Shown here piece by piece: positions 3,001 to 9,000 of a stretch of DNA of 64,000 bases (within the stretch, counting starts at the first letter, position 1; every line of letters begins with the position of its first letter). The DNA lies in assembly GCF_058153355.1 (NCBI RefSeq), contig NZ_CM177019.1; one strand, 5' to 3'. The position numbers are program-made.

Positions 3001-6000
3001 CGCCATACCATCGATAAAGCTGTTTACCGTCGCTTCGTCGTAGTTGGTGGTAAATGAAGTGGTTAGCCACAGGCCGAAGGACCACGCGGGCGGCAGCGCC
3101 GGACGACCAGTAAAACGGGTATAACGATCAAGTACCGCTTTCGGCGTCGGGCCGTCGATAACAAAGTATTCGAGATATTCACTCTCAACGCTGAACTGCA
3201 CTTTGGAGACTTTCTCCGATCCCACTTCAAAAGAGACGCATTGGGGATGATTGACCAGTACACCATAACCACGGTTAGTCATATAGAACGGGATATTTTT
3301 ATACGCCTGTTCAGTACTTGTGCCGCCGTCCCGGTTCCAGGTCTCTACCGTCTGGCCATTGCGCACCAGGGCAGTAAAGCGCTCTCCCAGACCGTAAACT
3401 GTTTCGCCAACGCCAAGATCCAGCCGCTCAAACATATAATTTCGTTGATTATTCGTGTCCTGCACGTAGCCATTATTTTTCACCTGACTACCGGTAATAC
3501 GTTCGCCGTTGCGCAGAAAATCCAGTGACCAGAACTCACCTTTGCTGACACGCGCACTTAAGTTGCCACTTTTAAACTCAGCGTAACGTTCTGTGTTTTC
3601 GATTGTGACCTTCACGTCCTGCAAAATATTGAGCGGGTAATGAGGACCGTTATTCAGCGCCCCCTGAAAATGCTCAATCCGTACACCGACAATACCTTCC
3701 TGTGGGGAGAAAAAGCGCAGCGTAAATAAAGGCGTATCAAGCTGCCAGGTACGTTCACGCACATCACGGGGGGCAGCATAGACCACCATTTCATTACCCT
3801 GCTGTTCAACCTCGAACACCTGAAGCGGGTGAATCAAATTGAGGCCAGGTTGAATCAACCAGTTTCCGTCGCTAATTTTCATTGCCGTTCCTTAGTTCTG
3901 CACTTCTTGAGAGGTGAATTGTTGCTGGCAACGGCGTTTGCCCTGGGCCAGCTGTTCCATAACGGTTTTCAGATTGTGCGTCGTGAGTGAGTAGTAGCGT
4001 TTAGCGATAATCGCGCTCAGCAAGTAACAGATCGCCGGAACAATCGTGAATAGCGCGATAATGATGCTAATCGTGGCGCTGTTCTGCGCTTTTTCTGCCG
4101 CATCATATCAGCCATAAGCCAGCATCCAGCCGATAAGAGCGCCGCCGAAGGCCAACCCCAGTTTGAGCACAAACAACGTGCCAGCAAAACTGATCCCGGT
4201 CAGGCGTTTACCATTGCACCACTCGCCGTAGTCGACGGTATCGGACATCATTACCCACTGGATAGGTGTCACCAGTTGATGCAACACACCAATCACGAAG
4301 ATGAAGACAAACATGGTGATGCTGGCCTGCATAGGAACAAAGAACATCGCCAGGCTAATCACTGCCAGCAGGGCGTTCGTCCACCAGAAGATAGTGACTT
4401 TACATTTCCAGTCGGTCAGCGGTTTCGCCAGTGCGGACCCAATCAGGTTACCCACGCAATAAGTGGTAAGAAAAGCGACAAACACTTCCGGCGTACCCAA
4501 AATCCATGTGACGTAATACATCATCGCCCCGCCGCGTACGCACACCGCCAGAATATTGAAAATGGTCAGGAAACCGACAATACGCCACTGGTCGTTTTGC
4601 CAGATATCACGTAAATCTTCCCGCATAGACGTCGTTGTAGGTGGTGCTTCAACGCGTTCTTTAGTGGTGAAGAAACAAAATGCCAGCATCATAAATGCCA
4701 CCACGGAAAGGACCGCGATACCGCCCTGGAAACCGAGTGGTTTATTATCACCACCAATTAAATTAACCAGCGGCATCATCAGCACAGTAGAGAGCATGCC
4801 TCCCGCGGTCGCCAGCACAAAACGCCAGGATTGCAGCGAGATACGCTGAGTCGGGTCATTGGTGATTACACCACCCAATGCGCAGTAAGGGATATTGACG
4901 ACGGTATAAAGTAAGGTAAGTAGGGTGTAACTAATTGCTGCATAAATCATTTTTCCGTTCATACTGAGATCTGGCGTGCTATAGGCCAGTACACAGACGA
5001 TCCCGAATGGCAGTGCGCCAAACAGTACCCATGGACGAAATTTACCCCAGCGAGAGCGCGTTCGATCGGCCAACAACCCCATGCAAGGATCGGAAATCGC
5101 ATCCAGTGCACGAGCGACCAAAAACATGGTTCCGACAAATCCGGCAGGAATGCCAAAAATATCGGTATAAAAGAACATCATATATAATATTACGTTATCG
5201 AAAATAATGTGGCTGGCGGCGTCTCCCATGCCATAACCAATTTTCTCTTTAACGGACAACACTTCACTCTTCATCTGCTTTTCCTTGATGCTATAGGGGT
5301 GCTGAGACCGATAACGCATTTTGTAAACCATCCCTGTGAGAGCGAATATTCCGATATCTGGTTATTAATTTATGATTCTTGTTTTATGTGATCGTGGTAG
5401 CGTAAATTACGCTCATATATCATTGTAAAGTATGGGTTTTATATGAACTATAATGCTTTCGTGATAATACGCTGCATGTATTAGGCGGAAAAAACTGATC
5501 TGGGGGATGTAGAAACTCAAGGAAGTAGCTATAATGCGCCCCGCCTCCATGTAGCAATCGAGGCGCGGAAGATCGTCGTCTCCGGTGAGGCGGCTGGACT
5601 TCAAATCCAGTTGGGGCCGCCAGCGGTCCCGGGCAGGTTCGACTCCTGTGATCTTCCGCCAGTTTGCCTCTACTGACGTTCTCCAACCCCTTGTAATACA
5701 GTCAATCCAGATATTTTCTACTGCTCAATATTTAATCGGCTTCAGGAATACCTGATCAAAGGTTTTGTGATGGACGATGAGCGACTGAAGAATCCGCCTG
5801 TCGGTTCTTCTGTCCTCGAACGCATCCGCGATATTCGCGCCAGCATGCGCCGTGTTTATTTGCAGGTGATTTGCCCCCACTGCTGACTCTCAGCCAACTG
5901 TATCGCCATTAAGGTGAAGATGTTGTTTTACACGCCCCAAAACACCCTTTTTTCATACGACGATTCTATTCCTTTAACCGCTGGCGAAAAAAACTGACCT

Positions 6001-9000
6001 ATAAACTTCACCAATAATCAGACTGCCATCAAGATTAATTTTTTCATTTAATATATCAAATAAACTTGTTTTATTTTTACTATCAAAAATAGCTCATTGC
6101 CTTACTATAATTAATATATAAATTCGGTGATTAATTCTTAACATGCTTTTGCTAATAATCTCAATTGCTGGCCCTATAATATTGCGCTAGCATTGCTTTC
6201 TGGTTGTATCAGCGATACTCAAAAATTCTTAATATAATACTCATTCGACTGGTACTTATTTGTAACTCAGTTATATTTTGTCGCCCGGTGATTCAGAAGA
6301 ATGCAAAAAATGGCTACCACTCCATCAAAAATACTTGATCTCACTGCCGCGGCATTTTTACTTGTCGCCTTTCTGACTGGTATTGCGGGCGCTCTCCAGA
6401 CTCCCACCCTAAGTATATTCCTCGCAGATGAACTGAAAGCCCGTCCTATAATGGTAGGTTTTTTCTTCACCGGTAGCGCTATTATGGGAATTCTGGTCAG
6501 TCAATTTCTGGCAAGGCACTCCGATAAACAAGGCGACCGTAAATTACTGATCCTACTATGTTGCTTATTTGGAGTGTTGGCCTGCACTCTTTTTGCGTGG
6601 AATCGCAACTACTTCATTCTCCTCTCTACGGGCGTACTTCTGAGTAGTTTTGCTTCCACTGCAAACCCGCAAATGTTCGCCCTCGCCCGTGAACACGCCG
6701 ACAGAACAGGCCGTGAGACGGTCATGTTCAGTACATTTTTACGTGCTCAGATCTCGCTTGCCTGGGTTATCGGGCCACCGCTCGCTTATGAGCTGGCAAT
6801 GGGATTTAGTTTTAAAGTGATGTATCTCACCGCTGCCATCGCATTTGTTATTTGCGGGCTGATAGTCTGGTTGTTTTTGCCATCAATACAAAGAAATATT
6901 CCTGTCGTTACCCAACCCGTAGAAATTTTACCCTCCATCCATAGAAAGCGGGATACACGGCTACTTTTTGTAGTCTGTTCAATGATGTGGGCGGCGAATA
7001 ATCTCTACATGATAAATATGCCGCTATTTATTATTGATGAACTGCATCTAACCGATAAACTGGCTGGAGAAATGATTGGTATTGCTGCCGGTCTGGAAAT
7101 TCCGATGATGTTAATCGCAGGCTATTACATGAAACGTATTGGCAAGCGACTATTAATGCTCATTGCTATCGTGAGTGGTATGTGTTTTTACGCCAGCGTA
7201 CTCATGGCGACGACTCCGGCAGTTGAGCTGGAATTGCAAATTCTAAATGCCATTTTCCTTGGTATTCTCTGTGGTATCGGCATGCTTTATTTTCAGGATC
7301 TGATGCCTGAAAAAATAGGCTCTGCGACAACGTTATATGCAAATACCTCACGCGTCGGCTGGATTATCGCCGGCTCTGTTGACGGAATTATGGTTGAAAT
7401 CTGGAGCTACCACGCGTTGTTCTGGCTGGCGATAGGGATGTTGGGTATTGCGATGATTTGCCTGCTGTTTATTAAAGATATTTAGCTCACCAGTCTGAGC
7501 TAAGAAAAATCGGCGTGGCGCAAACAGAGCCATCCTCGCCATTTTTGCTATCATGCCTGCATACATAAACGACAAAACAGTATGCAGAGGGAAAAATGGG
7601 TTCCACCAGAAAGGGGATGCTGAACGTTCTGATTGCCGCCGTGTTGTGGGGAAGTTCAGGGGTCTGCGCGCAATACATCATGGAGCAAAGCCAGATGTCG
7701 TCGCAGTTTTTGACTATGACGCGTTTGATATTCGCCGGTTTGATTCTGCTGACGCTGTCATTTGTGCATGGCGATAAAATCTTTTCTATTATTAACAATC
7801 ACAAAGATGCCATTAGTCTGCTGATTTTTTCCGTGGTTGGCGCGCTAACCGTACAGCTCACTTTTTTGCTAACCATTGAAAAATCGAATGCTGCCACGGC
7901 AACGGTGCTGCAATTCCTCTCACCGACGATTATCGTCGCCTGGTTCTCACTGGTGCGTAAATCCCGCCCGGGCATTCTGGTTTTTTGCGCTATTTTGACA
8001 TCGCTGATCGGGACTTTTTTATTGGTGACACACGGTAATCCGACGTCATTATCGATCTCTCCTGCCGCGTTATTCTGGGGCATTGCCTCGGCATTTGCTG
8101 CTGCATTCTATACCACCTATCCCTCAACGCTGATTGCCCGCTATGGCACGTTACCGGTCGTCGGCTGGAGTATGCTCATTGGTGGTCTGATCCTGCTGCC
8201 ATTTTATGCCAGACAAGGGACAAATTTTGTGGTTAATGGCAGTTTGATTCTGGCGTTTTTTTATTTGGTGGTCATCGGAACTTCGCTAACCTTTAGTCTA
8301 TATCTGAAAGGCGCACAGCTCATTGGCGGGCCAAAAGCCAGCATTTTGAGCTGTGCAGAACCATTAAGTAGCGCGCTGCTCTCTTTGCTGTTGCTGGGGA
8401 TCACGTTCACATTGCCGGACTGGCTGGGCACACTGCTGATTCTGTCATCGGTGATTTTGATTTCAATGGATTCCCGTCGCCGCGCCAGAAAAATAAATCG
8501 TCCGGCGCGGCATGAGTGAGAATTACCAGCCAGGCACCGCGCCACCGTTAAAGATGGTTTCTGCCGCTTTAGCGACTTCGGGCGATTGATAAGATTGCAG
8601 AAATTCCTTCACGTTTTCTGCATTCTTATTATCTTCCCGTGCCACCAGAATATTCACATACGGCGAATTCTTATCTTCAATAAATACGCTGTCGTGCACC
8701 GGAGAAAGCCCGGTCTGCTGAATGTAAGTGGTGCTGATAATCGCCACATCAACTTTGGGATCATCCAGTACGCGCGGGAGCTGCGCCCCCTCGAGTTCCA
8801 TAATCTGCAAATGACGAGGATTCTCGGTTATATCCAGCGCGGTAGGTAGTAACCCTTTTCCCTCTTTCAGAGTAATTAGCTTCTCTTTTTGCAACAGTAA
8901 AAGCGCGCGACCAAGGTTGGTCGGGTCGTTGGGGATCGCCACTGTCGCGCCTTCTTTTATTTGCGCCACGGTTTTGATTTTTTTGGAATAACCCGCCATG

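Follow-up and report, generated by a model that had tools for sequence, protein, structure and literature searches.

The selC locus of EAEC 042 has been described as selC-A, followed by the backbone genes setC-yicL-nlpA and then by selC-B, which holds eip, in the account of Sheikh et al. 2006 as relayed by Fox et al. 2020 (PMC7058095). The latter paper states explicitly that eip is set apart from selC by backbone genes (PMC7058095), and the EAEC 042 genome has been described in a paper of its own (PMC2808357). In Salmonella, SPI-3 is found at selC, and rhuM lies toward the variable end of this island that faces selC (PMC9251186, PMC3680342). A selC layout that includes a T3SS-related eip block 4 kb off was already described for E. 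coli and, in this respect, the locus studied here is ordinary.

The window, a stretch of 64,000 nucleotides from contig NZ_CM177019.1 (GCF_058153355.1), was analyzed with a focus on positions 5662-6300, directly 3' of selC. We consider it probable that this segment is the spacer 3' of a vacant selC att site and contains a relic of rhuM, while eip is a separate block spread by recombination. The segment would consist, in order, of the 15-nt distal part of the att core, a 57-nt distal arm, the rhuM fragment, and an AT-rich run into setC.

selC (5567-5661, plus strand), a tRNA-Sec gene with the anticodon UCA, was called by ARAGORN and by Rfam (RF01852, 83.8 bits) and is 100% identical to selC of K-12. 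Its final 24 nt and the 15 nt 3' of it make up the att core for selC-integrating elements (5638-5676, plus strand), which is vacant in the window. At attL of an island that bears an integrase (L006), chromosomal homology stops with this 39-bp core, a few polymorphisms apart, and the attR sites of KOr021, strain 6629, and EAEC 042 have a version of it beginning TTTGAC or TTAGAC. Matches to the window from occupied genomes either end at 5676 or begin at 5632-5641. The integrase lies 160-300 bp from selC in these genomes (300 bp in L006), and P4-like satellites with both attL and attR are found at selC in KOr021 and EAEC 042. An alignment of the window, K-12, and the attR sites of KOr021, 6629, and EAEC 042 defined the next 57 nt (5677-5733, no strand assigned) as the distal arm of the att site, the same sequence as the DNA immediately outside attR where selC is occupied.

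The earlier note had proposed a search of the window for direct repeats of the selC 3' end and a comparison of junctions with K-12. The 24-nt selC 3' end was found to be single copy in the window, with no second copy at up to 4 mismatches, as was the 39-bp att core at up to 12 mismatches; there was, accordingly, no far-end direct repeat of the tRNA 3' end. A search of both strands for degenerate repeats of either sequence, in which 14-24 nt could contain as many as 4 mismatches and 39 nt as many as 12, gave only chance-level matches at the loosest settings. No tyrosine integrase was found beside selC, either in the six translated frames of 5662-6300 or among the non-K-12 ORFs, and selC was seen to run directly into K-12-type DNA. 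No element is integrated at selC of this strain now, and attB is intact and single copy. With an intact, empty attB, the strain could still take up selC-targeting elements, such as LEE-type islands and P4-like satellites.

selC is contiguous with setC, as in the window, in 2,470 of 5,426 genomes. One possible explanation of the empty site is that selC recently held a modern element, such as a P4-like satellite comparable to selC-A, which was excised precisely and so restored attB. The close eip-carrying relatives EAEC 042 and KOr021 do have an 11-kb P4-like satellite at selC. Also, genomes differ unusually often in the 15 nt that follow the CCA end, where the window has GTT and K-12 has AAA, and the GTT variant is present in an attL as well. 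However, this variant lies in the common core and is not assignable to attP or attB, precise excision is traceless in one sequence, and the same empty configuration recurs in the 2,470 genomes. We regard a recent excision as very unlikely. The GTT/AAA difference was also considered as a footprint of past integration and was rejected, since it falls inside the common core of attP and attB and is seen in empty and occupied sites.

The earlier note had reported no integrase, transposase, or IS element anywhere in the window, and this was confirmed by HMM scans, K-12 colinearity, and self-comparison. Pfam searches of every ORF of the non-K-12 blocks, and of ten spacers within or beside them translated in six frames, gave no mobility domain; Phage_integrase and other recombinase domains were likewise absent from the six frames of 5662-6300 and from the non-K-12 ORFs. 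The remaining window is colinear with K-12, with all insertions at or below about 11 bp, and the K-12 annotation of this colinear remainder contains no mobile elements. Self-BLAST of the window gave no IS-like or inverted repeats, and the transposase, terminal inverted repeats, and target-site duplication of an IS or transposon insertion were not seen for any block. Searches of Pfam, NCBIfam, PADLOC, and PHROGs gave no match for the two hypothetical genes of low GC content that lie between uhpA and ilvN. Just one short repeat was seen at block flanks, GAAT[G/A]AAAAAA at the beta-glucoside block between adeD and uhpT, and it is present because the adeD 3' end occurs twice. Paralogs of yicS and yicN lie on either side of this block, and its junctions, which are of the microhomology or adeD-end duplication type, do not point to recombination of the present flanks.

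The further statement that 5662-6300 contains no remnant did not hold. A relic of the RhuM family, rhuM' (yicT in K-12), was identified at 5734-5868 (plus strand) by Pfam, PGAP, and tblastn, 62 bp past the att core. Its score against PF13310 (Virulence_RhuM) was 42.9 bits, over the curated Pfam cut-off of 33.7 (E = 4.8e-11, profile positions 50-98 of 252), which places it in the family. The fragment is internal and corresponds to amino acids 121-171 of an E. coli RhuM that is intact and 345 aa long; 41 of the 43 aligned residues are identical (tblastn E = 2e-21). It is neither full-length nor intact, having a 24-nt (8-codon) in-frame deletion and no start codon in context, and is a pseudogene. 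PGAP labels it a partial rhuM pseudogene, and the K-12 label is pseudogene yicT, b4653.

GC content and alignments defined the rest of the spacer (5869-6300, no strand assigned) as an AT-rich region 5' of setC with 33.8% GC. Genomes of the intact-rhuM type lack a homolog of this region, and its six frames gave zero Pfam matches. Rfam found no structured RNA in 5662-6300, and promoter and terminator patterns there were not in excess of the shuffled expectation. An 18-nt imperfect direct repeat around selC and rhuM' (5484-5501 and 5983-6000, 16 of 18 identical) is A-rich and does not extend, and was attributed to chance.

Anti-phage defence genes are typical island cargo. Intact RhuM matches PADLOC PDC-S05 (E = 2.8e-173) and, by this likeness, would belong to a family of candidate anti-phage defence. 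rhuM' is a relic of island cargo at selC and not an integrase or IS remnant. The earlier note had named an integrase or IS remnant, or a repeat of the selC 3' end, as the findings that would speak against it; rhuM' is, formally, none of these, yet it does record a former island.

Together, rhuM' and setC form one of two alternative fillings of the slot between selC and yicL (5677-7566, plus strand, 43.2% GC). setC (6301-7485, plus strand) encodes an MFS sugar efflux transporter according to Pfam (MFS_1) and the PGAP and K-12 annotations. Strain AVS0093 has the order selC, intact rhuM, a hypothetical gene, and yicL, and its homology to the window stops at 5676 and restarts at 7567. The complete rhuM'+setC cassette was found in 3,651 of the 5,426 genomes, and the cassette of intact rhuM plus the hypothetical gene in 844, about 16% of complete E. 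coli genomes. The left boundary of both cassettes is the last base of the att core (5676/5677). A presence/absence polymorphism that breaks at the att core, as for an integrated island, was thus observed for this older layer only. The genomes with intact rhuM lack the 5677-5733 distal arm. Both cassettes have a GC of 0.43 versus 0.48-0.49 in neighbouring genes. Over a stretch of 29 bp (86%), the arm that follows the core in the intact-rhuM cassette is similar to the attL arm of an island with an integrase, but this stretch is too short and was given no weight.

The slot between selC and yicL exists in two versions, with either rhuM' and setC or intact rhuM and the hypothetical gene. Because these versions part precisely where the att core ends, we infer that the slot, including setC, is an old, decayed island slot and that selC was the insertion point of an earlier layer. 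An older rhuM-bearing element would formerly have occupied the slot, then lost its integrase and distal repeat, and finally been overwritten; the rhuM relic, with setC next to it, would be what is left. setC could have arrived later than rhuM, or the two could be what remains of a single larger island. As for a site-specific arrival of the rhuM layer, the sole direct link is that the boundary coincides with the att core, as there is no attR-like repeat or integrase fragment.

It could also be proposed that selC was never used in this lineage, that selC-yicS is all ancestral backbone, and that every block arrived by homologous recombination of its flanks. The colinearity with K-12 from selC to yicS and the absence of any integrase, IS, or att repeat would agree with this proposal, and the recombination signatures around eip, described below, are real. 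However, it does not provide for a rhuM pseudogene fragment so close to the att core, for the swap of setC for another cassette in 844 genomes with a breakpoint exactly at the att-core end, or for the cassette GC of 0.43, and the junctions of the beta-glucoside block misfit flank recombination. The rhuM relic and the alternative cassette already contradict it, and we find it quite improbable. The rhuM relic indicates that the selC-adjacent region was an island slot before and, therefore, a match to K-12 is not proof of ancestral backbone. The earlier description of setC and the following genes as ordinary backbone stands as far as colinearity with K-12 goes, but not for the setC cassette, which has its alternative in other genomes. 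Similarly, the claim that selC is not the insertion point is right for the eip block, where nothing suggests site-specific integration, but not for the older rhuM layer at the att core.

The window is colinear with yicI-yicJ-selC-setC-yicL-nlpA-yicS of K-12 over 1541-9841 (96.2% identity), and this colinearity placed yicL (7596-8519, plus strand), nlpA (8523-9341, minus strand), and yicS (9550-9843, plus strand). The eip block ('selC-B', 9842-26842, no strand assigned) was delimited using Pfam, PGAP annotation of colinear genomes, and PMC7058095. It starts 4,181 bp past selC, in line with the distance of about 4 kb given earlier, and stands in place of 48 bp of K-12 sequence. The complete eip/selC-B gene set is present between yicS and nepI: eicA, a chaperone gene (10145-10642), eipB (10890-12671), eipC (12684-13805), eipD (13849-15117), eilA (15505-17202), and the inverse autotransporter gene air/eaeX/iatC (17254-26640, minus strand). 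The Pfam domains of the block are TPR_3 chaperone, T3SSipB/SseC, T3SS_TC, Trans_reg_C plus TPR, and IAT_beta plus Big_1. Not all of the genes are intact, as eipD is frameshifted, lying in two frames at about 15084 due to either a frameshift or a sequencing error. The right core flank is the nepI ORF (26843-28090, minus strand), which is 99-100% K-12-like except for its last ~40 nt. The junctions are at gene ends, and neither repeats, direct or inverted, nor mobility genes were found there. The eip block is an event separate from selC, between yicS and nepI.

Sliding-window identity to K-12 outlined an eip-linked haplotype (9300-26885) that begins with a diverged spacer between nlpA and yicS, continues through yicS and the eip/air block, and takes in the final ~40 nt of nepI. 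Identity falls sharply at about 9300 and is back to 99-100% at about 26885, some 40 nt inside nepI, where nepI is 99-100% K-12-like beside flanks that are about 96% identical. The nlpA-yicS spacer and yicS show 98-100% identity among eip carriers versus 82-90% in genomes lacking eip. This is a divergence of 10-18% between carriers and non-carriers, compared to 2-4% in the surrounding genes. Among the 5,426 genomes, a yicS-flank allele of at least 95% identity was found in 748 and the eip left junction in 738, at one place per genome and at the same position in all carriers. Any model would predict linkage of yicS to the junction next to it. The block itself is mosaic, with eipB at 85-93% identity to other carriers, EipC at 45% protein identity to EAEC 042, and neighbours at 97-100%, and the yicS alleles are internally mosaic in AVS0093.

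These alignments suggest that homologous recombination most likely carries the eip block from one E. coli lineage to another, or removes it, as part of a diverged haplotype, with crossovers that would fall close to the 5' end of nlpA and the 3' end of nepI. Recombinational import is favored because of the deep divergence and sharp breakpoints and not because of linkage alone. Homologous recombination accounts for the spread or loss of the block and not for its first insertion. Another possibility is that the block is ancestral to E. coli and that its patchiness is the result of repeated deletion alone, horizontal exchange having played no part. All 738 carriers share its position and left junction, and the short spacer of eip-lacking genomes is weakly similar to both block termini (17 of 22 nt on the left, a CCTGAT/ATCAGG hairpin on the right), both of which speak for deletion. 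The excess divergence of the yicS region, the sharp breakpoints with a K-12-like nepI, and the mosaic alleles in yicS and inside the block point instead to exchange on top of any loss, making deletion alone unlikely. A scan of representative genomes of other species with EipB gave a single mis-binned MAG contig and did not separate ancestral presence with loss from import. The earlier proposal that the islands were acquired or fixed by homologous recombination is, thus, supported for the spread of eip by flank allele, breakpoints, and mosaicism, but not for the beta-glucoside block, given its junctions. The flank-allele linkage of eip is a clear example of E. coli island travel without mobility genes, a principle that was already established.

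Beyond the preferred reading of a vacant selC site with a rhuM relic and a separate eip block, the slot might be a layered record of events that followed one another, in which setC is cargo that destroyed a rhuM-bearing selC element and the eip and yicS haplotype was imported by recombination from a divergent Escherichia lineage. We offer this tentatively, as possible rather than probable. Under it, setC, which is commonly regarded as a core gene for sugar efflux, would have arrived in or beside a defence-type selC element, and the imported eip block would travel with a yicS allele diverged by 10-18%. The overall import of these results is small beyond correct annotation.

Compared to known systems, SPI-3 is, according to publications, a selC island with rhuM, whereas the window has only 135 nt of rhuM and lacks the other SPI-3 genes, among them mgtCB, misL, and marT. 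The P4-like satellites and tyrosine-integrase islands at the selC 3' end define the att core that is vacant at 5638-5676 and, unlike them, the window has no integrase, attL/attR pair, or element genes. K-12 yicT (b4653) lies between selC and setC in the same position as rhuM', with 96% identity over the fragment; the window copy has a slightly longer 3' open frame and otherwise shows no difference of substance. EAEC 042 contains selC-A, an 11-kb P4-like satellite bounded by a selC 3'-end repeat, which is absent from the window, while the beta-glucoside block between adeD and uhpT is in the window and not in EAEC 042. The eip alleles of the two also differ (eipB 85% nucleotide identity, EipC 45% amino acid identity), eipD is frameshifted in the window, and the number of air Ig repeats is different. 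EAEC 042 and the window share the same order from selC to adeD: rhuM', setC, yicL, nlpA, yicS, the eip block, nepI, and a RelE/HTH pair.

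The selC gene (tRNA-Sec; 5567-5661, plus strand) was located by ARAGORN and Rfam and is separated from setC (6301-7485) by the spacer 5662-6300. With up to 3 mismatches allowed, the window contains a single match to the 24-nt selC 3' end, and none would be expected by chance. The earlier note had seen no att-like remnant here, and the search for direct repeats agreed, since both strands returned only the original copy when 20-24 nt and up to 4 mismatches were used. The core used by selC-integrating elements was delimited by aligning the junctions of occupied selC sites: an integrase-bearing island (L006, integrase 300 bp from selC), the 11-kb P4-like satellites in KOr021 and EAEC 042, each with attL and attR, and strain 6629, a further source of attR. 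The resulting 39-bp att core, TTCGACTCCTGTGATCTTCCGCCA plus 15 nt, lies at 5638-5676, and no second copy was found on either strand of the window with up to 12 mismatches. Because the core is present in a single copy, the selC att site of the window is unoccupied. Such an empty site, with selC contiguous with setC, was found in 2,470 of 5,426 complete E. coli genomes.

The 15 nt past the CCA end of selC (5662-5676) are unusually polymorphic in E. coli: GTTTGCCTCTACTGA in the window, AAATGCCTCTCCTGA in K-12 and other variants elsewhere. The GTT variant is also found in attL of L006. An A-rich, 18-nt imperfect direct repeat (5484-5501 and 5983-6000, 16/18) flanks selC and the rhuM fragment described next and is probably due to chance.

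A six-frame scan of 5662-6300 gave a Pfam Virulence_RhuM (PF13310) match at 5734-5868 on the plus strand, scoring 42.9 bits (curated cut-off 33.7 bits). In all the setC-type genomes fetched, PGAP calls a partial rhuM pseudogene here, and the K-12 annotation has it as yicT, b4653. It corresponds to residues 121-171 of the intact, 345-aa RhuM of E. coli strain AVS0093 (locus L002), with 41 of 43 aligned residues identical and a 24-nt in-frame deletion. Homology to intact rhuM is lost abruptly on either side. The stretch 5734-5868 is therefore a genuine remnant of the rhuM lineage to which the AVS0093 gene belongs, and the similarity is not due to chance. The negative statements of the earlier note, on integrases, IS elements and att repeats, stand, but a relic of island cargo, the rhuM fragment, lies inside 5662-6300. 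Intact RhuM matches the PADLOC candidate phage-defence entry PDC-S05 (E 2.8e-173), and in Salmonella SPI-3, rhuM is found at the selC-proximal, variable end (PMC9251186, PMC3680342).

When the window was aligned with AVS0093, homology stopped at 5676, the end of the att core, and restarted at 7567, 29 nt before yicL. Between these points, AVS0093 carries intact rhuM and a 165-aa hypothetical gene, a cassette present in 844 of the 5,426 genomes, while the window carries the rhuM relic and setC, complete in 3,651. The GC content of both cassettes is low (0.425 and 0.432) compared to yicJ (0.476) and yicL (0.494). The position of the break, the two cassettes and the low GC show that the selC-yicL slot is variable and island-like, with the att core as its left edge. 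The DNA after selC had been described as ordinary backbone; it is colinear with K-12, but it is ordinary only in that relative sense, given the intact-rhuM cassette of other genomes. The setC-type state would be derived from a rhuM-bearing one because the fragment must come from an intact gene, and setC may be either a later arrival or part of the same older island. The claim that selC was not an insertion point fails for this older layer, for which the relic and the cassette boundary at the att core lead us to infer insertion at selC.

BLAST against MG1655 showed that the gene order reported earlier and the distance of about 4 kb between selC and the eip block were correct. The segments 1541-9841, 26843-28121, 28964-32822, 39793-44851, 48248-58853 and 59343-64000 are colinear with K-12, without insertions greater than about 11 bp. 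At the left edge, a BglG-type antiterminator (1-1540) is the end of a PTS block that is inserted between yicH and yicI, lacking in K-12 and EAEC 042 and present in 24A16CRGN010, AVS0093 and KOr021. Near the right edge, glvG (58621-59943; 6-phospho-alpha-glucosidase, GH4) is intact, and K-12 has a pseudogene with 58854-59342 deleted.

The earlier statement that the window contains no integrase, transposase or IS element also holds. Pfam scans were run on all ORFs of the non-K-12 blocks and, in six frames, on ten spacers within or beside these blocks, and revealed no recombinase or transposase. The domains found were all expected ones: T3SS chaperone, translocators and tip protein, a HilA-like regulator, inverse autotransporter, RelE/HTH, LacI, PTS components, GH1, LamB and DUF1198. 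Self-BLAST of the window detected no IS-like repeats; outside the air Ig repeats, it returned only two paralog pairs, yicS/yicS' (9647-9841 and 32819-33010, 82%) and yicN/DUF1198 (29037-29538 and 39271-39772, 79%). Strain 06-00048 is colinear with the window across each of the three blocks from yicS to ilvN. Over the window's span, its PGAP annotation contains no mobile-element gene or pseudogene except one IS200/IS605 (tnpA and insQ/tnpB; 15604-17251 of its locus, L004), which replaces yidI-yidL. The window has K-12-like yidIJKL.

The eip/air block (9842-26842) takes the place of 48 bp of K-12 between the stop codons of convergent yicS and nepI, and no repeats were found at its junctions. Identity to the window over the nlpA-yicS spacer and yicS is 98-100% in the eip-bearing 042, 06-00048, 24A16CRGN010 and KOr021, but only 82-90% in the eip-lacking K-12, AVS0093 and 6629. 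This split is absent in genes further out in the same genomes. Species-wide, a query of 9342-10144 found the left junction in 738 genomes and at least 95% identity in 748, with 4,620 more in the 80-90% band. At about 9300, identity to K-12, 96-100% up to there, drops to 64-88%, and on the right side the divergence is confined to the last ~40 nt of nepI. Past about 26885, identity to K-12 is 99-100%, compared to roughly 96% in surrounding genes, and nepI (26885-28121) is a small patch of recombination. In genomes without eip, the 41-nt spacer is weakly similar to both termini of the block; thus, the zone of divergence extends beyond the insertion or deletion.

The block is strongly mosaic. The closest relative on the left side, 24A16CRGN010, is 99-100% identical from BglG to eicA but only 88.7% in eipB. 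Within 10890-13805, eipB shares 85-93% nucleotide identity with other carriers, compared to 96-100% for eicA and eilA, and EipC shares 44.7% protein identity with the EAEC 042 version. The flank split by carrier status, its species-wide counterpart, the sharp breakpoints and the mosaicism together support exchange of whole haplotypes by homologous recombination in the core flanks, which would concern the spread of eip and not its first entry into the spacer.

The T3SS needle-tip gene eipD (13849-15300) is split over two frames at about 15084: one aligns with residues 1-377 of 042 EipD and the other, at 100% identity, with 377-449; this could be either a pseudogene or a sequencing error. It also has a ~96-nt insertion (14401-14496) relative to other strains. 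The air/iatC region (19400-23200, 62% GC) is a long array of ~291-nt Ig-domain repeats. Their copy number varies by strain, which explains the low-looking whole-block BLAST identities. A scan of representative genomes of other species found nlpA-yicS-eip DNA, 87-92% identical to the window, on a 10.7-kb contig (L012, JAIJJM010000039.1) labeled as a Collinsella MAG, which is almost certainly mis-binned Escherichia sequence.

The beta-glucoside block (32818-39792; LacI, cellobiose-type PTS, GH1 and LamB-porin; non-K-12 from 32823) lies between adeD and uhpT and occurs in 24 of 5,426 genomes. At its start, the final 64 codons of a yicS-like gene follow the adeD stop codon directly and in frame. 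Its other end lies about 70 nt upstream of a yicN-like DUF1198 gene, and after it the adeD 3' end (GAATAA) occurs a second time. The adeD 3' end, GAAT[G/A]AAAAAA, is present at both ends, suggesting either that there was an old duplication or that a paralogous yicS-X-yicN locus was imported and joined by microhomology. This does not fit recombination in the flanks. The earlier note had attributed all the islands to such recombination, an explanation that has good support for how eip spread but not for every block; its observations are partly confirmed and its interpretation partly supported.

Between uhpA and ilvN, 44852-48247 holds two hypothetical genes (495 and 383 aa, GC 0.34-0.37) with no match in Pfam, NCBIfam, PADLOC or PHROGs. 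Since this pair is present in 444 genomes and a DUF6708 gene occupies the spot in other strains, it is a variable hotspot. A further non-K-12 segment (28122-28963), between nepI and yicN, holds a RelE/ParE toxin and HTH antitoxin pair (28255-28614 and 28598-28921) adjoining REP-like sequence; the pair is also present in 042, 06-00048 and AVS0093.

According to Fox et al. (2020, PMC7058095), who refer to Sheikh et al. 2006 and Ren et al. 2004, the phage-like selC-A of EAEC 042 has selC on one side and a 21-bp repeat of that gene's 3' end on the other. Backbone DNA with setC, yicL and nlpA comes next and leads to selC-B, the eip locus. The 042 locus that we fetched agrees with this description. 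The window has the same selC-to-eip layout but lacks selC-A, and its rhuM relic is the yicT of K-12. It contains no new kind of feature, and its layout is one already known from EAEC 042.
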